In this document: positions 3,758 through 56,017 of the stretch, one piece after another
How positions within the stretch are numbered: position 1 is the first letter of the stretch
Layout: the number at the start of each line of letters is the position of its first letter
Assembly (NCBI GenBank): GCA_031378375.1
Contig: JANNEF010000105.1
Span: forward strand, 693-64,692
DNA from: Verrucomicrobiota bacterium
GTDB lineage: Bacteria > Verrucomicrobiota > Verrucomicrobiia > Limisphaerales > JANNEF01
Reading direction: 5' to 3'
Length of the DNA stretch: 64,000 nucleotides
Notes under the pieces: generated by a model
What the model was told of the DNA's origin: nothing
Databases searched by the model: none
What the model saw: the letters and a program-made list of their open reading frames with translations, nothing else
Made by a program: the position numbers and the translations under genes

Positions 3758-6496
3758 TTACTTGTCCAGGCACGCGCGAACCATTTCCGCCAGCTTGGGC
3801 GGCGGGTAGGGTTTTTGGAGGAAGACGGTGTCGCGCCGGCCCATGTCGCGCCCCATGATGTCGGCGCTGTATCCACTGGTGTAAATCACTTTGAGGTCCG
3901 GTTTGCGCGACCTCAATTCATCGGCGAGTTCGCGACCGGTCATGCCTTCCGGCATTACCATGTCCGTAAGCAGCAGATCGATGTTGCCGCCGCGCTTCTC
4001 CCAGACTTTCAGGGCGTCCACGCCGGAGCAGGCCTCCAGCACTTCATAGGCGTAATCCTTGAGGATCATCTGGGCGAGCTCACGCAGGACTGGCTCATCT
4101 TCGACGAGCAGGATGGTCTCGCGTCCACCTTTCACGGCCGGTGGGGCGGCTTTTTCAACCACGACCTCGGCGGTCTTGGTGGTTACCGGGAGGTAAACTT
4201 TGAACGTGGTGCCAACGCCAATTTCGCTGGTGACTTCGAGCCAGCCTTGATGCTGTTTGACGATGCCATACACGGTGGCCAGGCCCAGCCCGGTGCCTTT
4301 GCCGACGGGCTTGGTGGTGAAGAACGGCTCGTAAATACGGTTCAAGGTTTCACGGTCCATGCCACACCCGGAGTCGGCCACGCTCAGGCAGATGAACTGG
4401 CCGGGGCGCGCGTCGGGATGTTGTTGGGCGTAGGCGTCTCCGACCTGGACCGTCTTGGTGGCGACAAGCAGGCGCCCGCCTTTGGGCATCGCATCACGGG
4501 CGTTGACGGAGAAATTCATGATCACTTGTTCGATCATGCCCGCGTCGCCTTCGATAAAGGCCGGCTCGGGCGTGCAACTGCACTCCAGGGCAATGTCGTC
4601 GCCCAGCAGGCGGTGGAGCATCTTGGACAAGTCGCGGAGCAAGCCATTTATATCCAGCACGCGCGGCTGCATGACCTGCTTGCGGCTGAACATAAGCAAT
4701 TGGCGCGTGAGACCAGCGGCGCGGCTGGCGGCATCGGAAACCTGTTTGAGCGGATCGCCGGCTCGCGGATCGAGGTCGGCCATGCCCAGCAAACGATCGG
4801 CGTGGCCCTGGATGATGGTGAGAATATTGTTAAAATCGTGGGCGACACCGGCGGCCAGTTGACCGACGGATTCGAGTCTTTGCGCATGGAGCAATTGCGC
4901 TTCGAGGTTGAGCCGGTCGGTCACGTCCTGCCCGTAGCAATGCACCACGTGATTGGCCAGGATGGGGAAAAAGGACCAGGAGAGCGTTCGTTCGTTGATG
5001 CAGATTTCCTGGCGCAATCTGCTCTGGCCCGTGCGCAGGCATTCCTGCGCCGTCGCCGAGGCACAGGGTGGCAGAATCGCCGCCGCATCCGCGACCGTGA
5101 GCGAGAGCGCCATTTCTGACGCGGCCTGGTTCAAGTAAGTGAGCGTACCGTCGGACGCCAGTTCCAACACCGGATCCGGATTAAAGCGCGGAAAGGCGGC
5201 GAGCTTGCGGATTTCCGCCTCGGCCCGTTTGCGCTCGGTGATGTCGGTGATGGTGCCCGACGTGCCCAGATCCGTGCCAAGCGTGGGCTGCGCGTACACC
5301 TCCACCCAGCGAAACGTGCCGTCGCTGGCGATGAAACGTGTCTCATCACGGCAAAAGCTTTTTCCCCGTTGGATGACTTCTTGAAATACTTCGCAGTGAC
5401 GTTCGCGGTCTTCCGGGTGGACATAATCCACGAACGACTTGCCGAGGGATTCTTTAATCTTGAAACCCGTAATCTCCGTCCACGCGGGATTGAGGAACGT
5501 CCACTGGCCGGCGTCGTTCACCTGAAAGATGACTTCCTTAATGCTCTCGACCACCGAACGATAACGAACTTCACTGGCACCCAAGGCTTCCTCGGAACGT
5601 TTGCGCTCGACACACAAGGCAATGCCGTTGGCAACCGATGACATCTCCTGCAGCACCGTCGGAGCGAAAGGCTGGCTACTATAGATGACCATCAGTCCAA
5701 CGGGCCGTTCCTCGAGCATCAAGGGATAGCCGGCACACGCGACAATCCCTTCGCGCTTGACCCAGTCGCGGTCAGCCACGGGCGTTTCTTTCAACGCGGG
5801 ATTGAACAGAAATGGTTTCCCCTCAGCGATAAGGTCCGGCGGAGAAGTGGTGCGCGAGTTGCACTGTGGATACCCATCCGGGTCGGTGATGGTGCCGACG
5901 CTGGCCTGCAGTTGAAGCAACCCGGCCTCCGGATCAAAAGTCCAGATGCGCGACAACTCCGCCTGGAGATAATTCGACATGGCCGCCGCGCAACGATGCA
6001 AAATCGCATCCAACGAGTCGCGACGGGTCAACGCCAGGCCAACCTCCGCGCCAAAGGCTGCCAGCCTCGCCTGATCCGCCGCCGCCGCCGCCGCAGCGCG
6101 CTGGCGGCCAACGGCATAGCGGATGGAGCGCTCCAGCGAACACGCATCGAGACGGCTCTTGATCAGATAATCCGCCGCGCCGGCCTGCATCGCTTCGAGG
6201 TCGATCTCGTGTTCGCCCTGCCCGGTGAGAAGGATGATGGGCGAGGTGCAGCCCCGTTCCAGCGCCGCCCGCAATACTTCAACGCCGGTTTGGGCGCCGA
6301 GCCGGTAGTCCACCAGACAGATATCATGCTGATTGAGCACCAGCGCTTCGAGGCCGGCGGCGGGATTTTTCACCCACTCCAATTGGAAGCGCCCCCCTTG
6401 AATCTCGGAGAAAAGACTTTTCGTCAGGATGAAATCGTCCTCGTCATCCTCGATCAGAAGAACCTTCAAGGGTTCGTTATGCGTGGGGGACTGCAC
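3758..6496 (-). CDS. Hybrid sensor histidine kinase (receiver-GAF/PAS-HisKA-HATPase-receiver)
   Basis: 912 aa. It has an N-terminal receiver (LLIEDDEDD...DICLVDYRL), PAS-like segments, an H-box ([13 protein letters not shown]), ATPase boxes ([25 protein letters not shown]) and a C-terminal receiver (ILLVEDEP...[14 protein letters not shown]). The GTG start at 6496 overlaps the upstream receiver stop by 1 nt. Confidence 0.9.
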
Positions 6497-11862: not shown

Positions 11863-11966
11863 GATTAATCAGTGAGTCAGTAATCAGTAAACCAGTGGTG
11901 TGGCAGCCCGGGGCAGTTACTCCGTCCGCCGGATACTGACTCACCGATTACTGGATACTGGTTCAC
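11863..11966. repeat. CAGT-word palindromic element (copy in the opp operon)
   Basis: The left arm is GATTAATCAGTGAGTCAGTAATCAGTAAACCAGTGGTG. The right arm is GGATACTGACTCACCGATTACTGGATACTGGTTCAC, built of reverse-complement words. A ~30-nt spacer separates them. Confidence 0.8.
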
Positions 11967-20738: not shown

Positions 20739-21728
20739 ATGAATACTGGAATCACTGCCATCAACGACGAAGTCCAAAAGGCCAGCGCCTTCGTGCGCCC
20801 GCTGTTTGCCGAGATCGGCAAGGTCGTCATCGGCCAGAGCTATCTGGTCGAACGCCTCGCCATCGGCCTGCTCGCCGGCGGGCATGTGCTGCTCGAAGGT
20901 GTGCCCGGTCTGGCGAAAACGCTCTCGGTGAAAACGCTCGCCGCGTGCCTCAACGTAAAGTTTTCCCGCCTGCAATTCACGCCCGACATGCTGCCCGCCG
21001 ATGTCATCGGCACGCAGATTTACAACCCGCAGAGCGGCGGCTTCACCACGCGCAAAGGCCCGATCTTCGCCAACCTCGTCCTCGCCGACGAAATCAACCG
21101 CGCGCCCGCCAAGGTGCAAAGCGCGTTGCTCGAAGCGATGCAGGAGAAACAGGTGACCATCGGCGACCAGACCTACAAGCTGGAGGAACCGTTCCTCGTG
21201 CTCGCCACGCAAAACCCCATCGAGCAGGAAGGCACCTACCCGCTGCCCGAAGCGCAGGTTGACCGCTTCATGCTCAAGTTGAAGATCGGCTATCCCAGCC
21301 GCGACGAGGAGCGGCAAATCCTCGACCTGATGGCGCGCACCAGCAACCTGCCCACCGCCAGTTCGGTGGTGGAACCGAAACAGATTTTGAAGGCGCGCCA
21401 GGTCATCAACGACATCTACGTGGACGACAAGGTGAAGGATTACATCGTGGACCTCGTCTGCGCCACGCGCGACCCGGCGCAATACAAAATCCAGCTCCAG
21501 GGTCTCATCCAGCTCGGCGCGTCACCGCGCGCGACCATCAACCTCACGCTGGCGGCCAAGGCGTATGCCTTCCTCAAGGGCCGCGGCTACGTCACGCCGC
21601 AGGACGTGAAGAGCATCGGCATGGATGTGCTGCGCCACCGCGTCGCCATCACCTACGAAGCCGAGGCGGAAGACAAGACGAGCGAGACGATTGTGCAGAA
21701 GATTTTTGATGAGTTGCCGGTGCCGTGA
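20739..21728 (+). CDS. moxR: MoxR-family AAA+ ATPase
   Basis: Track ORF trimmed to the ATG at 20739 (MNTGITAINDEV). Has Walker A LLEGVPGLAKT, Walker B VLADEINRA and LATQNPIEQEGTYPLPEAQVDRF. Confidence 0.93.
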   Translation: MNTGITAINDEVQKASAFVRPLFAEIGKVVIGQSYLVERLAIGLLAGGHVLLEGVPGLAKTLSVKTLAACLNVKFSRLQFTPDMLPADVIGTQIYNPQSGGFTTRKGPIFANLVLADEINRAPAKVQSALLEAMQEKQVTIGDQTYKLEEPFLVLATQNPIEQEGTYPLPEAQVDRFMLKLKIGYPSRDEERQILDLMARTSNLPTASSVVEPKQILKARQVINDIYVDDKVKDYIVDLVCATRDPAQYKIQLQGLIQLGASPRATINLTLAAKAYAFLKGRGYVTPQDVKSIGMDVLRHRVAITYEAEAEDKTSETIVQKIFDELPVP

Positions 21729-21867
21729 TTAACGCTCTCCGATGGCAACTCTCACCAATTTCAGCATCCATGACGAACCGAGTTCCGGCCAGAGGATCTG
21801 CGCATGCACTCTCGAACGTCCTCGAGGCACCCTCGACACCGAGCGACACACGAGGTAAAACCAGTCC

Positions 21868-22143
21868 ATGAGCAAGACACTCACTTTGCAGTATCCAGAC
21901 AACCTGCCCGCCACGCTGCACATGACCGCTCCGGAATTCGAGCGCGAAGCCAAACTGTCCATGGCAGTGAAACTTTACGAAACCGGCAAACTCTCCTCCA
22001 GCCAGGCGGCCGCGCTGGTGAGCCTGCCGCGCGTTCACTTCCTCTACGAACTGGCCCGGTTTGGCGTCTCGCCACAGCAGTTGGACGCCGGAGAACTTGC
22101 GACCGACCTCGCCCATGCCGAACAAGCCCTCGCTGGTCATTAA
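21868..22143 (+). CDS. UPF0175-family antitoxin
   Basis: 91 aa. The pattern L.YPD.LP..L.M...EF.REAK...AVKLYE.GKLS..QAA.L matches UPF0175. It overlaps the downstream PIN-like gene. Confidence 0.75.
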   Translation: MSKTLTLQYPDNLPATLHMTAPEFEREAKLSMAVKLYETGKLSSSQAAALVSLPRVHFLYELARFGVSPQQLDAGELATDLAHAEQALAGH

Positions 22144-22612
22144 CACCAGCCCGCTCGTCGCACTGATGACTGGCTTGGATGATTTCCATGTCCTCGGCGA
22201 AGTGGCGACACTGGTGGTGCCGGGAGAAGTCATGGCCGAGCTTCAGGCCGGAAAGGCGCGCGATGATGTTGCCAAGAGAATCGCGTCCACCCCCAGCTGT
22301 GCGATTCGTGCGAACCTTCCGTCCCTGCCGCTGTCCCTCCAGAGCGCGCTGGGCGCGGGCGAGGCCGCGGTCATTCATACGGCCCTGACGGAATCCATTT
22401 CCACAGTCGTCATTGATGAACGCAATGGGCGCCGCACGGCTGCGCTCCCCGGTCTACGTGTAACTGGCTCGCTCGGCCTGCTGCTCGCGTTGCAAAGGCG
22501 CGGCTTGGTGACGTCAATCCGGCCGGCGATCGCGCGGATGAAAGCGAAGGGCATTCATCTCAGCGACGACTTGGTGAACGAGGCGCTACAATTGGAAGGA
22601 GGCAAGCGATGA
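22115..22612 (+). CDS. DUF3368-family PIN-like toxin
   Basis: Track ORF trimmed to the ATG at 22115 (MPNKPSLVINTSPLVALMTGL). The NTSPL..L, VPGEVMAEL and GEAAVI segments fit DUF3368/PIN-like proteins, which are normally paired with UPF0175. Confidence 0.75.
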   Translation: MPNKPSLVINTSPLVALMTGLDDFHVLGEVATLVVPGEVMAELQAGKARDDVAKRIASTPSCAIRANLPSLPLSLQSALGAGEAAVIHTALTESISTVVIDERNGRRTAALPGLRVTGSLGLLLALQRRGLVTSIRPAIARMKAKGIHLSDDLVNEALQLEGGKR

Positions 22613-22636
22613 ACAGAAACCCATCACGCTTCACCT

Positions 22637-22722
22637 GCCGCGGCGGCATCACCTGCGCGGCGGAGGACAAGACGAGCGAGACCATCGTGCGGAAGATTCT
22701 TGATGGGTTGCCGGTGCCGTGA
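22637..22722 (+). pseudogene. Duplicated 3' end of moxR (remnant)
   Basis: 22659-22722 aligns with moxR 21665-21728 at 58/64 identical nt (hand count), including the stop. It translates as ...ITCAAEDKTSETIVRKILDGLPVP*, versus moxR ...ITYEAEAEDKTSETIVQKIFDELPVP*. Confidence 0.85.
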
Positions 22723-23435
22723 TCAGAGTCGCCACATCCACCGTGAGAATCGCCCTGGTAGGAGACCACAGTCCCGATGTGAAGGCCCACGCGGCCATTC
22801 CCAAAGCTTTGACCCTGGCTGCCGGAACTGTTGGCACGGAGGTTTCAGTCGAATGGCTCCCAACGCAGGCGCTGCTTGGCAATGACCTCAAAAGACTGGG
22901 CGGTTTCCAAGGTATCTGGTGCGTGCCCGGCAGCCCATACGTGAGCATGGAGGGAGCGCTCCGGGCGGTTCGATTCGCCCGCGAGCGCATGGTTCCATTC
23001 CTCGGCACTTGTGGTGGGTTCCAGCACACACTAATCGAGTATGGCCGGAGCGTGCTCGCTTTGACCGAGGCCGACCATGCCGAGTCCAACCCTTCCGCAA
23101 GTTTCGCCCTGATCGCTCCCCTGTCCTGCCCTCTCAGAGAAACCGTCGCGCGCATCCATCTCCGTCCAGGCTCACGCGCAGAAGTCATTTATGGTCAGCC
23201 AGAGACAATCGAGACGTTCAACTGCGGCTACGGGCTTAACCCGGAGCACCAAACGCTCTTCTCAAATGGCGCCTTGCGCATCAGCGGCGTGGCGGACGAC
23301 GGATCGGTACGCATTGTGGAGTTGCAGGATCATGCTTTCTTCCTGGCTGCTTTGTTCCAACCCGAACGATCGGCAGAGCGCAACCATTCACATCCGCCGA
23401 TCGTGGCATTTGCTCGCGCCGCACTCGCCGCATGA
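22719..23435 (+). CDS. Class I glutamine amidotransferase-like protein (CTP synthase C-terminal-domain homolog)
   Basis: 238 aa. VRIALVGD, FLGTCGGFQ (nucleophile elbow) and HAFFLAALFQPERSAERNHSHPPIVAFARAA align with the CTP synthase GATase domain (E. coli ...[31 protein letters not shown]). The GTG start overlaps the remnant moxR stop (GTGA), and the stop overlaps the remnant DUF58 start (ATGA). Confidence 0.75.
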   Translation: MIRVATSTVRIALVGDHSPDVKAHAAIPKALTLAAGTVGTEVSVEWLPTQALLGNDLKRLGGFQGIWCVPGSPYVSMEGALRAVRFARERMVPFLGTCGGFQHTLIEYGRSVLALTEADHAESNPSASFALIAPLSCPLRETVARIHLRPGSRAEVIYGQPETIETFNCGYGLNPEHQTLFSNGALRISGVADDGSVRIVELQDHAFFLAALFQPERSAERNHSHPPIVAFARAALAA

Positions 23436-23490
23436 TCCTCCGCGAAATTCTCAAAAAACTCCGGCAGATCGAGATTTGCTCGAACCGTGT
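23432..23490 (+). pseudogene. Duplicated 5' end of the DUF58 gene (remnant)
   Basis: 23432-23487 aligns with the true DUF58 start 24076-24131 at 51/56 identical nt (hand count): MILREILKKLRQIEICSNR versus MIPREILKKIRQIEIRTNR. Similarity ends after ~19 codons. Confidence 0.85.
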
Positions 23491-23506
23491 TCTGCCGGTG
23501 TTCCGT

Positions 23507-23806
23507 TCAATTCAACCGTCGCCGCAACTCGGCGGGATTCCGTGCACCGTGAAAAAACGCGACCACATGGACCGCATTCAACTCAATCGAGTAATAAATG
23601 CTGTAGGGAAATCGTTTGAGAATGGCTTTATGCGTGGCAGGCGCGGCGAGACGAAACCTTTCGGGAACCGTAATAATCTGCTGAAGCATTTCCTGCACTT
23701 CGAGGGTGAATTCATCGCTCAATCCCGGGCGCTGGTTTTCATACCACGCCGCAGCGTCCTCAAACTCCAGCCGGGCGAGCGGCGCGAAAATGATTTCGCG
23801 CCTCAT
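23507..23806 (-). CDS. RelE/ParE-family type II toxin
   Basis: 99 aa. FAPLARLEFEDAAAWYENQRPGL, FPYSIYYSIE and VHVVAFFHGARNP are typical of ParE/RelE plasmid-stabilisation toxins. The start overlaps the antitoxin stop (ATGA). Confidence 0.8.
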   Translation of the reverse strand: MRREIIFAPLARLEFEDAAAWYENQRPGLSDEFTLEVQEMLQQIITVPERFRLAAPATHKAILKRFPYSIYYSIELNAVHVVAFFHGARNPAELRRRLN

Positions 23807-24036
23807 GCCTTGCGGCTTTTCAAACGTTCAGCGAGTTCGGCTTGCACGGTTTCCCAAGGAATGCCGCGTTCAGGATGCTGCCGCAATTCTTCCGCGCGAC
23901 GTTCAAGTTCGGTGATCTGTTCCAGCGTGAGTTCGTCATCGAAATCGCCGAACTCTTCGCGGACTTTTTCGGCGACTTCTTGTTGTTCCCCGGGCGGCAA
24001 CCGGCGGATTTGTTCCAGAATTTCTGTCGCGCTCAT
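23803..24036 (-). CDS. Addiction-module antitoxin (TIGR02574-like component)
   Basis: This is the last 77 codons of the spurious 610-aa track ORF 23803..25635: MSATEILEQIRRLPPGEQQEVAEKV...GIPWETVQAELAERL. The pattern fits the small 'addiction module component' antitoxins found upstream of ParE/RelE genes. Confidence 0.7.
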   Translation of the reverse strand: MSATEILEQIRRLPPGEQQEVAEKVREEFGDFDDELTLEQITELERRAEELRQHPERGIPWETVQAELAERLKSRKA

Positions 24037-24075
24037 GGAACCAAATTTAGCGGTCACGATACATTTTGCAAGCGC

Positions 24076-25026
24076 ATGATCCCCCGCGAAATCCTCAAAA
24101 AAATCCGGCAGATCGAGATTCGCACGAACCGGCTCGTGAGCGAGACGCTTGCGGGCCAGTACCACAGCGTCTTCAAAGGCCAGGGCATGAACTTCGAGGA
24201 AGTGCGCGAATACCAGCCGGGCGACGAGGTGCGCGCCATTGATTGGAACGTCACCGCGCGCATGAACCATCCGTTCGTGAAAAAGTTCGTCGAAGAGCGC
24301 GAGCTGACGCTCATGCTGCTCGTGGACCTGAGCGGCTCCGGCCTGTTCGGCTCTGGCGAGCAGAGCAAGCGCGAACTGGCGGCGGAAATCGCGTCGGTGC
24401 TCGCCTTCTCCGCCATCCGCAACAATGACAAGGTGGGCTTGATTCTGTTCACCGATGAGGTGGAGAAGTTCATGCCGCCGCGCAAGGGCAAGAAACACGT
24501 CTTGCGGGTCATCCGGGAAATTCTTTTCTCCGAGCCGAAGCGGCGCGGCACGGACTTGAACTGCGCGCTGGAATTCCTGGTGCGCGTCACGCCCCATCGC
24601 GCCATCGCGGTGATTCTGTCGGATTTTCTGGAGCCGGGCACCGCCAGTCCGATCTCCCGCCTTCGTCCCGGCGCGACGGGTGAGACGAAGAACCTCGCCC
24701 AGGCCTCCTACACCGCACTGCGCCAGGCCAATCGCCGGCACGATGTCGTCGCGGTGCAAATCGCCGACCGCTTCGAGCAGGAACTGCCCGCGCTGGGCCG
24801 CCTCGTGCTCAAGGACGCGGAAACGGGCGAAGTGGTGGAAGTGAACTCCAGCGACACGCGCAAGCGCGACGCCTTCGCGCGGCAGCAGGCGGTGGCGCAG
24901 GAGGAGTTGATGCGCCTGTTCCGCTCCGCGCGCATTGACGCAATCCAGTTGCGCACCGACCAGCCGTACGGCTCGGAGCTGGGGCGGTTCTTCGAGACAC
25001 GGGAGAAACGGCGGATGCGTGGTTAA
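24076..25026 (+). CDS. DUF58 domain protein (Bat operon member)
   Basis: Track ORF trimmed to the ATG at 24076 (MIPREILKKIRQIEIRTNRLV). GQYHSVFKGQGMNFEEVREYQPGDEVRAIDWNVTAR and LLVDLSGS are DUF58 hallmarks. Confidence 0.9.
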   Translation: MIPREILKKIRQIEIRTNRLVSETLAGQYHSVFKGQGMNFEEVREYQPGDEVRAIDWNVTARMNHPFVKKFVEERELTLMLLVDLSGSGLFGSGEQSKRELAAEIASVLAFSAIRNNDKVGLILFTDEVEKFMPPRKGKKHVLRVIREILFSEPKRRGTDLNCALEFLVRVTPHRAIAVILSDFLEPGTASPISRLRPGATGETKNLAQASYTALRQANRRHDVVAVQIADRFEQELPALGRLVLKDAETGEVVEVNSSDTRKRDAFARQQAVAQEELMRLFRSARIDAIQLRTDQPYGSELGRFFETREKRRMRG

Positions 25027-26660: not shown

Positions 26661-26786
26661 AATAGTAATCAGTGGGTCAATAATCAGTGAATCAGTCACT
26701 GAGAAGCGAGGTTCACCGTCCCGCATAGCTGCGATCGCCATTGATCACTGGTTCACTGATTACTGACCTACTGACCCACTGACAAC
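26661..26786. repeat. CAGT-word palindromic element (batA-batB intergenic copy)
   Basis: The left arm is AGTAATCAGTGGGTCAATAATCAGTGAATCAGTCACTGAG. The right arm is TTGATCACTGGTTCACTGATTACTGACCTACTGACCCACTGAC, e.g. TCAGTGGGTCA pairs with TGACCCACTGA. The spacer is ~37 nt. Confidence 0.85.
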
Positions 26787-49960: not shown

Positions 49961-52362
49961 AGACCACGGGAGCCACAACCAGGCGCGCGGCTGTGGTCGC
50001 AGACCCAGCCGCAGCGCCCACGCAACGACAACGAGCTGCGGCTGATCCTACGGACCCAGCCGCGCTCCAATCGAACTCCCTTCTCCGTCAATGGAGCGGC
50101 CCGCTGTCCTCCGACCTCACGTTGCATCCCGGCGACTTTGGTCTCGGCAGAATCCCCGCCCGCCTTCGCCCCGACGCCACCACACGCTCCATCTGCGGCT
50201 TCTGCTCCACGGGCTGTTCGCTTGACGTTCACCTGCAATCCGGCGTGGCCGTGAACCTCACGCCCACGGTGGACTATCCGGTGAATCTGGGCATGGCGTG
50301 CCCGAAAGGCTGGGAGGCGCTCACCTGTCTGGCCGCGCCGGATCGCGCCACACAACCGCTTTTGCGCAATCCCGACACCGGCAAACTCGAACCCACCGAC
50401 TGGGACGAAGCGATGCAGGTCTTCACGCTGAAGTTCAAGGCGCTGATGGATCAGCACGGGCCGGAGAGTGTGGCGTTTCTCAGCACCGGCCAGATTTGCA
50501 CGGAGGAGATGGCGCTCCTCGGCGCGCTTTGGAAGTTCGGCATGGGCGCGTTGCACGGCGACTCGAACACGCGCCAGTGCATGGCCACCAGCCACGTTGC
50601 CTACAAGCAGAGCTTCGGCTTCGACGCGCCGCCCTACACCTACGCGGACTTCGAGGAGTCGGACACGCTCGTCTTCATCGGCTCGAATCTCTGCATCGCG
50701 CACCCGATTCTCTGGCAGCGCGTCCTGCGGAACAAAAAAAATCCCGCCCTCATCGTCATTGACCCGCGCAAGACGGAGACGGCGATGAACGCGACCCAGC
50801 ACGTCGCGCTGCGGCCCAAGTCCGACCTCACGCTGCTCTACGGCCTGGCGAACCTGCTGGTGCAGGGCGGCTGGATTGACCGCGCGTTCATCGAGCGCAG
50901 CACGACGGGATTCGCGGAGTTCGCGGAGTTCGTGCGGCAGTTCACACCCGACAAAGTTGCGGCGGAGACCGGCTTGACCGTGGGCGAATTGTCCCGCGTC
51001 GCCGAGACCATCGCGAAGGGCAAGGCCGTGAGTTTCTGGTGGACGATGGGCGTGAACCAGAGCCACGAGAGCACGCGCACCGCGCAGGCCGTCATCAATC
51101 TCGCGCTGATGACCGGCAACATCGGCCGTCCCGGCACCGGCGCGAACAGCATCACCGGCCAGTGCAACGCGATGGGCTCGCGCCTGTTCGCCAACGCCTC
51201 GGGACTGCTTGGCGGGCGCGACTTCCTCAACGCTGAACATCGCGCCGAGGTATCGCGCGCGTTGCACATCGCGCCGGAAAGCATTCCCGCGAAGAACTCG
51301 CTCGCCTACGACCAAATCATGCAGGGCATCGCCGAGGGCCGGATCAAGGGCCTATGGGTCATCGCCACGAACACGGCGCACTCGTGGATTGATTCCGCCC
51401 GCGCCTGTGGCGCACTCGACAAGCTGGAATTTCTCGTCGTGCAGGACATGTTCACGACCACCGACACGGCGAAACGCGCGCATCTGATTTTGCCCGCCGC
51501 CGGCTGGGGCGAGAAGGAGGGCACGTTCATAAACAGCGAGCGGCGCTTCGGTCACATCAAGAAAGTGTCACGCGCGCCCGGCCAGGCGTTGAGCGATTTT
51601 AACATCTTCCGCCTGGTAGCCGAATACTGGGGCTGCGCCGGGATGTTCAGCCAGTGGACTTCGCCGCAGGCCGTTTTCCAAATCCTGAAAAGACTTTCCG
51701 CCGGTCGCCCGTGCGACATCACGGGCATCGAAGACTACCGGCATCTGGATGCGAGCGGCGGGATTCAGTGGCCGCTGGCAAAAGAACGTGAGTCAGTAAT
51801 CAGTGAGCCAGTGACCAGTGAACGCGAGATGGCGACGGGTTCCGCTACTGATTCACTGAATACTGGCGCACTGATTACTGATCACTCTCCCCGCGAACGC
51901 CGCCTCTTCGCCGACGGCAAGTTCTTCACTCCCGATGGCCGCGCAAAATTCCTCTTTGACCCGCCACGTCCCGTCGCCGAGCCGGTGGACAGCGAGTATC
52001 CGTTCGTGCTGTTGACCGGACGCGGCACGAGCGCGCAATGGCACACAAACACGCGCACCGGCAAGTCCGCCGTCTTGCGCACGCTGTATCCGGCCAACCC
52101 CTACGTGGAGATCCATCCGAAAGACGCCGCGCGATTGCGAATCGAACCAAACACGACCGTCGCCGTCATCTCACGACGCGGGCGCGTTGAGTGCGCCGCG
52201 GTGGTCACACCCATCGTGCAGCCCGGACAGGTCTTCATCCCGATGCATTACGACCTGACGAACCAATTGACCCGCGCCGAGTTCGATCCGCACTCGCGCC
52301 AGCCCAGCTACAAACATTGCGCAGTGCGAATTGAACCGACGCGCAACGGTTCCAACAAATGA
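49957..52362 (+). CDS. nasA: Molybdopterin (bis-MGD) oxidoreductase, assimilatory nitrate reductase type (NasA/NarB-like)
   Basis: 801 aa with an N-terminal FeS motif ([10 protein letters not shown]...CPKG) and MGD-binding segments ([14 protein letters not shown]). The C-terminal barrel has [20 protein letters not shown] and the tail [10 protein letters not shown]. Confidence 0.85.
51788..51887. repeat. CAGT-word palindromic element (in-frame copy inside nasA)
   Basis: The left arm is GTGAGTCAGTAATCAGTGAGCCAGTGACCAGTGAAC, followed by a 23-nt spacer. The right arm is TACTGATTCACTGAATACTGGCGCACTGATTACTGATCACTC. It is translated as [33 protein letters not shown]. Confidence 0.85.
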
Positions 52363-54233: not shown

Positions 54234-56017
54234 TGGAAACCAACTTGATTCCCTACCTGCCCGACACGGCGCCGTTCACGCCGGAGCAACGAGCCTATTT
54301 GAACGGGCTGTTCGCCGGCCTGTTCGCCCACGCGCCGCGCGCCACCAACCCGGCGCCTGCCGCCAAGCCACTGCTACCGCTGACCATTCTGTTTGGCTCG
54401 CAGACCGGCAATGCGGAGGCGCTCGCCAAGCGCGTCGCCAAGGAAGCCGGCAAGCAGGGCTTCGCGCCGACGATCTTTGACGCGGCGCAATATCCGCGCG
54501 AGCAACTCAAGACCGAGAAGCATCTGCTGCTCATCACCAGCACCTACGGTGACGGCGAACCGCCGGACAACGCAAAGGACCTGTGGGAATTTCTCACCGC
54601 CACCACCGCACCCGCGCTGCCGGAGTTGAAGTTCTCCGTGCTGGCCCTGGGCGACACGAACTACGAAAAGTTCTGCGAGTGCGGGAAAAACTTCGACCGC
54701 CGCTTCCATGAGCTGGGCGCACACCGGGCGCATCCGCGCGTGGATTGCGACGTGGACTTTGAGGAGCCATTCGGGAACTGGCTGGCCGGCGCGTTGGGCG
54801 CGCTGGCAGGCGGTGGGGGAGTAATCAGTGAATCAGTAATCAGTAGGTCAGTGACCAGTGCGCCCGTCTCTGCCACTGATTCACTGGTTACTGGTTACTC
54901 GCGCGCCCACCCGTTCCCCGCCCCGCTCGTCGCCAACCGCCGGCTCAACGCTCCCGGCTCGGGCAAGGACACGCGGCATTTTGAAATCGCACTCGACGGC
55001 AGCGGCTTGACCTATGAAGTCGGCGACGCGCTGGGGGTGGTGCCGGCGAATTGCCCGGAACTCGCGGACGAGATGCTTCGCACGCTCGGCTGCACCGGCG
55101 GGGAAGCGGTGCCCGGCGCGAAGGGTGGCGAAGTCCCGCTGCGCGAGGCGCTGTTGCGGCATTACGACATCACGAAGATTGCCCAGCCGCTCTTGCAGGC
55201 AATGGCAGAGCGGAGCGGGGACGAGTTGCTCAAGCAACTCACCGCGCCCGGTGTGAACGGCGAGTTGACGAAATTTCTCTGGGGCCGCGAGATTGTTGAC
55301 CTGTTGCTGGCGCACCCGCGCGCGAAGTTCGCACCGATGGAATTTGTCGGCCTGCTCAAGAAACTTCAGCCGCGGCTCTACTCCATTTCCTCCAGCCCCA
55401 AGGCACATCCCGGCCAGGTGCATCTCACTGTCGGGGTCGTGCGCTACGAATCGCTGGGCCGGGCGCGCAAAGGCGTGTGCTCCACGTTCCTGGCGGAGCG
55501 CGCGGGCGGCGGCGCGGCGGCGCCGGTCTTCGTCCACACGAACAAAGGCTTTCGCCCGCCCGCCGATGGCAGCCGTCCGATGATCATGGTCGGGCCGGGC
55601 ACGGGCATCGCGCCGTTCCGCGCTTTTCTGGAAGAGCGTCGCGCCGTCGGCGCGACGGGAAAGAACTGGCTGTTCTTCGGCGACCAACGGTCGGAGATGG
55701 ATTTCCTCTACCGCGAAGAGCTGGAGGCGATGCATCGCGACGGCACGCTGGCGCGGCTGGACACGGCTTTCTCCCGCGATCAGGAAGAAAAGATTTACGT
55801 GCAACAGCGAATGCTCGAACACGCCACCGAACTGTTCACCTGGCTGGAGGCCGGCGCGCATTTCTACGTCTGCGGCGACGCCAACCGCATGGCGAAGGAC
55901 GTGGACCGGGCGCTGCACCAGATCATCGAGCAAGCCGGCGGACGCACGGCAGAGCCGGCGGCGGAGTACGTGAAGAAGATGCAGGCGGAGAAGCGGTATC
56001 AGCGGGATGTGTATTGA
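54230..56017 (+). CDS. Diflavin reductase, sulfite reductase flavoprotein CysJ-like (flavodoxin + FAD/NADPH domains)
   Basis: 595 aa with an FMN domain ([32 protein letters not shown]) and an FAD/NADPH domain ([42 protein letters not shown]). Start is GTG 54230 or ATG 54233; both overlap the nirA stop. Confidence 0.88.
54821..54900. repeat. CAGT-word palindromic element (in-frame copy inside the cysJ-like gene)
   Basis: The left arm is GTAATCAGTGAATCAGTAATCAGTAGGTCAGTGACCAGTG, followed by a 13-nt spacer. The right arm is CACTGATTCACTGGTTACTGGTTACTC. It is translated as [27 protein letters not shown]. Confidence 0.85.

Follow-up and report, generated by a model that had tools for sequence, protein, structure and literature searches.

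Toxin-antitoxin cassettes between moxR and DUF58

The stretch of DNA analysed here, which we call the window, comprises 64,000 nt of a Verrucomicrobiota bacterium contig (JANNEF010000105.1, positions 693 to 64,692 of the forward strand) and contains an operon of the order moxR-DUF58-DUF4381-batA, in which moxR comes first and is separated from DUF58 by 2347 nt. This gap holds two toxin-antitoxin (TA) cassettes, a UPF0175/DUF3368 pair on the operon strand and a ParE/antitoxin pair antisense to it, which flank a passenger gene, here named gene X. Each cassette is bracketed by the intact end of a host gene and a truncated copy of that end, with the intact gene outermost. The features of the locus, in window coordinates, are as follows (ORF, open reading frame).

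20739-21728, plus strand: intact moxR, an AAA+ ATPase gene (Pfam AAA_3, 2e-66, and AAA_lid_2)
21638-21729, plus strand: repeat copy 1, the functional moxR 3' end including the TGA at 21726-21728 (repeat search and gapped alignment)
21729-21867, plus strand: cassette leader with a CCTCGACA motif, common to related cassettes (alignment of four cassettes)
21868-22143, plus strand: UPF0175 antitoxin gene (Pfam PF03683, 3e-22)
22115-22612, plus strand: DUF3368 (PIN-like) toxin gene, full length, with its stop within an ATGA (Pfam PF11848, 5e-13)
22609-22722, plus strand: adaptor ORF of 37 aa, running from an ATG that overlaps the toxin stop, in frame through the copied moxR C-terminus, to a TGA that overlaps the GTG of the next gene
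22638-22723, plus strand: repeat copy 2, a decaying moxR 3'-end fragment (repeat search and gapped alignment)
22719-23435, plus strand: gene X, class-I glutamine-amidotransferase-like (Pfam GATase, 5.5e-9)
23429-23487, plus strand: DUF58 5'-end copy, a 59-nt fragment (CGC, ATG and 18 codons), 92% identical to 24073-24131
23432-24079, plus strand: bridge ORF of 215 aa, from the fragment ATG to a TGA that overlaps the real DUF58 ATG
23507-23806, minus strand: ParE-family toxin gene (Pfam PF05016, 2.5e-6)
23803-24036, minus strand: antitoxin gene of the Unstab_antitox family (Pfam PF09720, 3e-8)
24037-24075, no strand assigned: leader U, 39 nt, on the promoter side of the ParE pair and fused to the DUF58 ATG (cassette comparison)
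24076-25026, plus strand: intact DUF58 (vWA-type) gene (Pfam DUF58, 5e-80)

The 3' end of moxR is present twice. The repeat search returned a 68-nt direct repeat (21662-21729 versus 22656-22723) with 61/68 identical positions (90%), and a gapped local alignment lengthens the match to 21638 and 22638 with one 6-nt gap. The alignment scores 56-58, compared with a maximum of 15 in shuffled sequences, and the similarity stops 1 nt past the TGA. An earlier reading of this DNA from its letters alone, hereafter the sequence-only reading, had let the similarity end 2 nt after the stop; its count of 58/64 identical positions between 21665-21728 and 22659-22722 was reproduced by the repeat search, and the TA pair at 21868-22612 does lie between the two copies as it had stated. 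That reading had caught about one quarter of a larger structure, leaving unremarked the DUF58 5'-end duplication, the antisense TA pair and the passenger gene between the two fragments.

The genes of the UPF0175/DUF3368 pair are co-directional, with the antitoxin first, and overlap by 29 nt. The toxin has 165 aa and its homologues have 163-167 aa, and by sequence the pair is a predicted type II TA module of the UPF0175/DUF3368 kind. The 139-nt leader in front of it is also spanned by a 48-aa ORF (21725-21871) that overlaps each neighbour by 4 nt; we give this ORF little weight because NTGA overlaps are near-automatic in GC-rich DNA.

On the other side of the gap, gene X lies between the moxR fragment and the DUF58 fragment, and the second copy of the DUF58 repeat (24073-24131) consists of the first 56 nt of DUF58 and three upstream bases. 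It is the only further direct repeat of at least 35 nt and at least 90% identity in the window. The toxins of both cassettes point inward, a gene-end fragment follows the 3' end of each toxin gene, and the intact gene end lies on the promoter side of its cassette in both cases. Leader U is conserved among the cassettes of the window and of two related loci (L088 and L010) and is unrelated to the spacers of empty sites; it is cassette-borne.

One further observation concerns this side. Part of the antitoxin gene, the region coding for its N-terminus (MSATEILEQIRRLP), is similar to the DUF58 N-terminus (MIPREILKKIRQIE) in both protein and nucleotide sequence, which may reflect coincidence or conversion between them. 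The similarity produces a 20-nt inverted repeat with 80% complementarity (23444-23463 and 24005-24024, also 24088-24107) around the divergent leader.

Composition and recombinase search

The GC content at third codon positions is 0.74 for DUF3368, 0.66 for gene X and 0.63 for ParE, in contrast to 0.82-0.85 for moxR (0.83), DUF58 and batA. About 45 ORFs of the window are ordinary chromosomal genes (hisB, argG, pgk, secG, pheS, genes for ribosomal proteins, ABC transporters and nitrite/sulfite reductase, and others), and Pfam found no integrase, transposase or recombinase domain among these ~45 ORFs, which agrees with the sequence-only reading that no integrase is present. No integrase was found among the gap genes scanned in three relatives (L008, L099 and L103), those of the other relatives having been scanned in part, so that an intact element of low frequency may have escaped notice, and the pre-computed Pfam labels of the loci fetched by protein look-up contain no recombinase. 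Neither the window repeat listing nor the alignment of four cassettes contains inverted repeats at the cassette ends.

We rejected a transposon or insertion sequence, which typically leaves a short target-site duplication of 2-15 bp: the locus has no transposase and no terminal inverted repeats, and the duplications, at 56-192 nt, are far too long. An integron, or a cluster of attC sites without integrase (CALIN), was rejected as well, as the separators are coding copies of moxR and DUF58, two unrelated sequences per locus, and no IntI is encoded in the window. A consensus scan found no promoter between moxR and DUF58, and terminators were fewer than in shuffles, the consensus being uninformative for this phylum.

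Elsewhere in the window, imperfect tandem clusters of 7-8 nt (CAGTGAA, TCAGTAA and similar) occupy intergenic positions at 11863-11897, 26663-26773, 51779-51866 and 54804-54894, one of them directly after batA. Tracts of the AATCCGC type are found in the leader upstream of DUF58 in L003, L005 and L081, and heptamer tracts flank TA cassettes in other places (CCGTTCA/CCAGTCA in L116, TTTCCGC in L129).

The moxR-DUF58 junction in related genomes

The MoxR of the window is 81-89% identical to that of the closest genomes, all of Verrucomicrobiota subdivision 3; these are metagenome-assembled genomes labelled Pedosphaera, Limisphaerales or 'Udaeobacter'. A MoxR scan with one genome per species gave 80 loci, 65 of which hold both moxR and DUF58. 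The compared loci are mostly metagenome assemblies and are related by descent, so the counts given here are not independent. The sequence-only reading had proposed looking for an empty site, and moxR followed directly by DUF58 proved to be the rule elsewhere: DUF58 begins at most 210 nt after moxR in about 55 of the 65 loci, with gaps of 61, 97, 37 and 41 nt in the close relatives L001, L006, L009 and L025, respectively. The spacers of these empty sites are mutually unrelated between genomes.

Occupied gaps measure 0.7-5 kb in the window and its relatives, enlarged gaps being found in L003, L005, L008 and L010 among others. The relatives carry one to four cassettes at the junction, bounded by copies of the moxR 3' end (77-192 nt) or of the DUF58 5' end (50-84 nt). 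L005 carries both kinds of fragment, L010 a single DUF58-5' fragment, and L003 two DUF58-5' fragments, each followed by a minus-strand ParE/antitoxin pair. Neither L008 nor the distant genomes with enlarged gaps (L017, L030, L035, L049, L058 and L068) contain fragment copies. On a distance tree of MoxR and DUF58, occupied and empty genomes interleave, with L081 beside L006 and L010 beside L001, which indicates repeated gains and losses. The moxR-DUF58 junction is a hot spot for small two-gene addiction cassettes in Verrucomicrobiota subdivision 3.

The slot of gene X holds unrelated genes in the relatives: an HNH-like gene in L003 and L082, DUF4132, KilA-N and VanY genes in L008, Sel1 and KilA-N genes in L103, and in L099 a gene for a 357-aa protein without a known family. 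The junction is thus a hot spot for accessory genes in general. L089 and L090 are one 155-kb contig deposited under two assemblies, in which frameshifts interrupt moxR, DUF58 and the bat genes; as these point to a low-quality assembly, both entries were left out of the frame statistics.

ParE cassettes form arrays at the DUF58 end

Homologues of the window ParE at 64-77% identity lie, in every case traced, between moxR and DUF58 and divergent from DUF58. Where ParE stands on the DUF58 side of an occupied locus, as in the window and nine relatives, a DUF58-5' copy is found just past the ParE stop (10/10). Measured from the ATG, these copies begin at 0 to -9, and in most of them codon 28 adjoins the ParE stop. 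In L008 the ParE pair adjoins moxR and has no DUF58-5' copy.

Arrays contain four cassettes in L082, three each in L092 and L103, and two in L003. The spacers of the L082 array are made of a ~95-nt leader, the ATG and 50-75 nt of DUF58 and are 78-90% identical to the real sequence; the ParE proteins of adjacent array cassettes are just 28-47% identical. Five cassette types recur in varying combinations and orders: type A always adjoins moxR, and type D lies to the left of B in L003 and to the right of B' in L092. The second antitoxin of L003 (8411-8773) is a fusion of two antitoxin types, and therefore a deletion occurred inside an older array. Antitoxins of one genome have become uniform in their N-terminal halves, all three in L092 sharing EA(D/E)RRELVEAIEVEFG, and this pattern has the appearance of gene conversion spreading out from the spacers. 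The copies of one genome reach high identity in some cases (100% over 67 nt in L081, 96% in L005). Whether the DUF58-5' fragments cluster by genome or with each other gives a weak signal, at 48-81 nt of a highly conserved N-terminus. Cassettes also decay in place, as seen in the frameshifted VapC of L103 (1810-2193) and the fused antitoxin of L003.

A different arrangement was observed in L181 (2120-3970), where three antisense ParE/antitoxin cassettes lie between two permease genes of an unrelated liv-type ABC-transporter operon without gene-end fragments. The 300-nt repeat units there combine the 3' end of ParE with a 67-nt spacer and with the antitoxin gene's 5' half; these units are 65-87% identical, and the rest of each unit is more diverged.

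Four unrelated modules follow the moxR end, and a third gene is also used

In L099, the nearest relative of the window on the MoxR and DUF58 tree, moxR is likewise followed by the UPF0175/DUF3368 pair, here with a moxR-3' copy of ~128 nt (92-95% identical). Downstream of it come a different gene X and then three DUF58-5' copies that separate two same-strand two-gene modules. In L103 the order is moxR, VapB/VapC (frameshifted), a moxR fragment of 76 nt, HicB/HicA, UPF0175/DUF3368, a moxR fragment of 192 nt and gene X. VapBC with a moxR fragment is also found in L091, and in L005 a 179-aa and 67-aa gene pair without a family label precedes the moxR fragment. The moxR-3' copies follow four unrelated modules (UPF0175/DUF3368; VapBC; the 179-aa and 67-aa pair; and HicBA with UPF0175/DUF3368 in tandem, in L103), and they end at one nucleotide past the stop every time. 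The sequence-only reading had proposed an insertion that brought along, or rebuilt, the 3' end of the gene it entered; this gains support from L099 and L103, which have the same pair with copies of ~128 and 192 nt. That reading had also named a TA pair without any duplication as evidence to the contrary; L097 does have the pair after moxR without a repeat, and the duplication is frequent though not obligatory.

The UPF0175/DUF3368 family was further found (62-69% identical) after an unrelated small gene ending in ...VSFVKL(V/T)PLVGG* in L095, L101 and L106, where the cassettes are bracketed by 66-122-nt copies of the 3' end of that gene, stop codon included. This target gene encodes 131 aa in L095. 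In a scan of metagenome contigs with DUF3368, for which a single-protein query gave no matches and an alignment query worked, significant direct repeats bracket 12 of ~48 loci with usable flanks. Six of these 12 are distant relatives; their repeats may not be gene ends, and some are heptamer tracts or non-coding.

Three observations stand beside these. In L095 (3306-7275) the 131-aa gene is followed by an 877-aa DUF4132/DUF7737 gene beside an alpha-2-macroglobulin gene, and the moxR-DUF58 gap of L008 (7661-10708) likewise contains a 131-aa ORF with an 878-aa DUF4132/DUF7737 gene behind it, so that the two genes may themselves be mobile as cargo. L115 is a 1632-nt contig with identical 123-nt ends (1-123 and 1509-1631) that carries a DUF3368 pair, and it may represent an excised circle, or simply a point where the assembly broke at the repeats. 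In L116, a longer contig, a DUF3368 pair is bracketed by 170-nt repeats (2185-2354 and 3814-3983, 96% identical) in addition to the heptamer tracts, and from identical match statistics this pair and that of L115 are probably the same.

The copies of gene ends: carried in or made in place

We compared each fragment codon by codon with the real gene end. Summed over the pairs, there are 101 synonymous and 97 non-synonymous codon differences, while synonymous sites make up 23% of the sites. The ratio of synonymous to non-synonymous differences is 12:1 in L103, 12:3 in L106, 4:0 for the fragment after VapBC in L103 and 5:2 in L099, as against 3:10 for the moxR 3' copy and 1:4 for the DUF58 5' copy of the window. 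The window fragments are decaying at the protein level and are too decayed to reveal foreign alleles. The sequence-only reading had held that a second copy lying in a longer, independently conserved ORF would speak against it; an ORF is present (37 aa), but with 3 synonymous and 10 non-synonymous differences it is a decaying fragment and does not encode a conserved protein.

The L103 copy is more informative. Its 120 nt next to the stop are identical to the resident moxR at 118/120 positions, while the 66 nt nearest the toxin are equally far from every sampled moxR, its own included (53-55/66). These 66 nt differ synonymously only, and they still encode the conserved peptide. The real moxR end of L103 matches that of L008, the most similar sampled, at 179/186 positions. 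From the equal distance and the conserved peptide we infer that this part of the fragment was recently in a functional moxR of another lineage and was brought in; the copy would since have been partly overwritten by gene conversion. As between a carried and a regenerated gene end, which the sequence-only reading had offered side by side, the synonymous-only differences of L103 favour the former. Alleles of a foreign orthologue, as expected of a single-crossover (Campbell-type) insertion, were found in L103 and L106.

Reading frames continue across the inserts

From the DUF3368 stop onward, every junction in the window is a 4-nt overlap (ATGA at 22609, GTGA at 22719, ATGA at 23432 and ATGA at 24076), which links the toxin stop to the 37-aa ORF and leads on to the starts of gene X, the 215-aa ORF and DUF58. 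The bridge ORF starts in an overlap with the stop of gene X and runs antisense across the ParE/antitoxin pair without a stop, compared with 9 and 5 stops in the remaining two plus-strand frames of this region. In same-strand cassettes, over all three target genes, a start at the toxin stop opens a frame that passes in register through the copied gene end as far as its stop (9/9); this start overlaps the toxin stop in eight of the nine and lies 12 nt downstream in the other. The lengths of these adaptor ORFs all differ (26, 28, 29, 32, 37, 45, 51, 54 and 67 aa), and one fragment has an in-frame 3-nt deletion.

For the antisense units, the bridge frame has no internal stop in 14/14 tested, as against 4-14 stops in the other frames, and ends on the next ATGA in 11 of them. 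Between the fragment ATG and the ParE stop lie 69, 75, 84, 204 or 687 nt, in every case a multiple of three; the four independent length changes in this interval are multiples of three as well, and so is the leader length in 10/13 units. In L181, a 616-aa operon-sense ORF crosses the three antisense ParE cassettes from a GTATGA on the upstream stop to the downstream ATGA, with 0 internal stops versus 17 and 18 in the other frames.

An uninterrupted bridge ORF would seem a strong sign of selection, but this argument was dropped after a control in which synonymous codons were resampled with the proteins fixed: the antisense frame was open in ~50% of units, and in 73% of resamplings for L181. Much of this openness is built in, given the in-phase antisense frame in which ParE is crossed and an antitoxin with many Glu, Arg, Ala and Leu residues. 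We likewise set aside, as evidence, the series of short ORFs joined by 4-nt overlaps, since any TGA preceded by A, G or T makes a start codon. The non-trivial part, to which we attach moderate weight, lies in frames that are in register with start and stop codons at either end and in indels of multiples of three in non-coding parts.

The arrangement suggests a role in translational coupling. Fragments would be kept in frame with a start overlapping the preceding stop, so that an unbroken ATGA/GTGA chain could extend from moxR over the cassettes and gene X to DUF58; in the window it would pass through the 37-aa and 215-aa ORFs. Operon translation, and hence transcription, may in this manner be able to cross selfish inserts, and an insertion would escape polarity and survive only if ribosomes could continue through it to the next gene of the operon.

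A model for cassette insertion and its alternatives

We judge it somewhat better than an even chance that the locus arose by homology-driven insertion-duplication, stabilised by addictive cargo, homogenised by gene conversion and kept in frame. The descriptive part of this account is solid, and the recombination mechanism is what the arrangement suggests. A cassette would travel with a piece of a neighbouring conserved host gene, and this piece would serve as the homology arm for a RecA-dependent single crossover that inserts a circularised molecule made of the gene end and the cassette. Such an insertion would duplicate exactly the stretch common to donor and recipient; the repeats would stop at a stop codon or an ATG because the sequence common to the genomes ends there. 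Past the repeats lie the cassette leader on one side and the native spacer or gene X on the other, so the duplicated segment appears to end where homology between donor and recipient ends, as in a Campbell-type product. Loop-out between the repeats would excise a one-repeat circle and restore a perfect empty site, an event opposed by the addiction module, and such clean loop-out fits the interleaved tree of occupied and empty genomes. Nearly all bracketed cargo with a known family consists of addiction modules (UPF0175/DUF3368, VapBC, HicBA and ParE/PF09720). Unequal crossover and gene conversion between the repeats could then yield arrays, shuffled order, fused genes and homogenised spacers.

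Several points weigh against insertion-duplication. The same topology is expected from integrase-mediated recombination, and a circle, an excision junction or a need for RecA cannot be seen in sequence. At every new target a circle would first have to gain a piece of the gene, a founding step that the model does not explain. Nearly all ParE units share the inner boundary at +84, which fits one founding event with amplification in place better than repeated imports. The 118/120 stop-proximal identity of L103 is not predicted by a simple Campbell product and needs later gene conversion. The shared descent of the loci limits the force of their counts, frame openness alone is weak evidence, short NTGA-overlap ORFs are near-automatic in DNA of 62% GC, and with the window fragments decaying (3:10 and 1:4), any selection here acts on the reading frame only.

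A related and more tentative proposal, which we regard as possible though below an even chance, is that these are distinct integrase-free mobile cassettes: TA modules with a portable gene-end homology arm, moved by host recombination, retained by addiction and of an operon-'transparent' design. In such a design, same-strand cassettes would end in ATGA and have the copied end read in frame, and the frame antisense to ParE would be open and registered on ATGA at both ends.

The explanation that comes closest in topology is that integrase-bearing elements at the moxR 3' and DUF58 5' ends have decayed to a TA module and att repeats, in the manner of cis-mobilizable elements (CIMEs), with a replacement gene end in attP, arrays built by tandem accretion into the att site, and a recombinase acting in trans. 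A recombinase that acts in trans on gene-end att sites gives the same topology (PMC5704250), a gene end borne on attP under purifying selection would explain the synonymous-only differences, and genes of mobile-element type (KilA-N, HNH) occur in the same gaps. We nevertheless consider this unlikely. No recombinase was found in the window, in the gap genes scanned or in the Pfam labels of the fetched loci, limited as that sample is, and three targets with at least five unrelated cargo families would need several integrases, all lost everywhere. The inner boundaries vary (-77, -82, -91, -128 and -192 at moxR; +50 to +84 at DUF58) more than a common core would suggest; the outer boundary always falls at the stop codon or at the ATG, and decay and gene conversion blur any crossover core. 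In the arrays, the border between conserved and variable sequence coincides with the TA coding sequence and spreads into the antitoxin N-terminus, which looks like gene conversion and unlike a site of crossover.

Duplication in place at the moment of insertion, by fill-in of a staggered break of the non-homologous end-joining type or by a template switch ~90 nt upstream, would give copies that are identical at first, and this we hold to be a little less likely still. It accounts for a de novo duplication when a new gene is targeted, for instance the 131-aa gene in L095, for the (near-)identical copies of L081 and L005, and for the non-synonymous excess of the window fragments as the expected neutral decay. 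However, the outer boundary falls at a stop codon or ATG in every independent case, as is not expected of a random stagger; in L103 and L106 nearly all differences are synonymous, with part of the L103 copy no closer to its own moxR than to others; and gene conversion in arrays explains high identity within a genome equally well. That the second copy is a functional small gene, its MoxR C-terminal peptide being a third TA component or a regulator of MoxR, would agree with a frame that is always kept, with the start codon at the toxin stop and with a peptide conserved relative to the gene in L103, L099 and L106. The peptide is nonetheless whichever gene end lies upstream, be it moxR or the unrelated 131-aa gene, its length runs from 26 to 67 aa, the window copy has 10 non-synonymous against 3 synonymous differences, and the ParE cassettes use a DUF58 N-terminal fragment instead; we find it very improbable. 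Repeats can be mis-joined in metagenome assemblies, which make up most of the compared loci, but chance similarity or an assembly artefact merits almost no credence when the alignment scores 56-58 against at most 15 in shuffles and the same architecture recurs in independent JGI, ENA and NCBI assemblies, including contigs of 0.5-0.9 Mb; the copies differ by substitutions and are therefore not collapsed repeats.

Chromosomal TA modules behave as mobile cassettes, and how they move has long been unclear; to our knowledge, most of them have neither a recombinase nor recognisable ends. The locus and its relatives suggest a concrete, testable route, in which a cassette would move with ~60-190 nt of a neighbouring gene and its insertion would be locked by addiction. 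They also suggest how a selfish insert may live in an essential operon without polar damage, by means of adaptor and antisense bridge ORFs. If true, this bears on operon evolution, on the annotation of fragments and long 'shadow' ORFs as translated, and on the design of insertions into synthetic operons. In soil and peat Verrucomicrobiota, the moxR-DUF58 junction is a place where cargo collects and can be searched for variable accessory genes, and it should be of interest to researchers of mobile elements and of TA systems.

Comparison with known systems

In the literature searched, the coverage of which does not extend to all journals, we found no prior description of TA arrays delimited by copies of host gene ends or of bridge ORFs across antisense cassettes. 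Integrative and conjugative elements (ICEs) of the ICESt1/ICESt3 type insert at gene ends, and their CIME remnants stack by tandem accretion (PMC5704250). The likeness lies in an element that supplies a copy of the gene end so that the gene stays intact, in stacked elements separated by partial gene ends and in the persistence of remnants without integrase (PMC5704250). In contrast to these, the elements described here measure 0.6-0.9 kb and carry TA genes only, both opposite gene ends of one junction are used along with a third, unrelated gene, and the repeat boundaries look like limits of homology or gene conversion and not like a recombination core. No integrase was found in the loci examined, including the window and the gap genes scanned in three relatives; a site-specific element would be expected to have one, and for a CIME it would lie in a related element at the same site of related genomes.

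Integron arrays and CALINs often carry TA cassettes. As in these, the arrays consist of small promoter-bearing TA cassettes whose order differs between genomes, and the repeats that separate them, 60-180 nt long, are far better conserved than the cargo. Unlike in integrons, the separators are, judged by sequence, the coding ends of the flanking host genes and not attC sites; each locus has two repeat types, neither IntI nor attI is present, and the array sits inside a housekeeping operon.

Overlapping stop and start codons in ATGA are a classic sign of translational coupling, and Rho-dependent polarity is established. The 4-nt overlaps that succeed one another between the DUF3368 stop and the DUF58 start have this classic arrangement. 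The ORFs so linked are not genes, one being a gene-end fragment and the other a 215-aa frame antisense to a TA pair.

Campbell-type recombination of circular DNA is used in insertion-duplication mutagenesis. The loci share with it a product of homology, cargo and homology, a duplicated stretch that corresponds to the shared segment and a reversible loop-out, and their repeats of 60-190 nt are within the range usable by RecA. Unlike the laboratory procedure, the insertion would here be natural, recurrent and stabilised by addictive cargo, with the arm at a gene end such that the gene is not disrupted. The locus resembles CIMEs in topology, integrons in array behaviour and, probably, insertion-duplication in mechanism.

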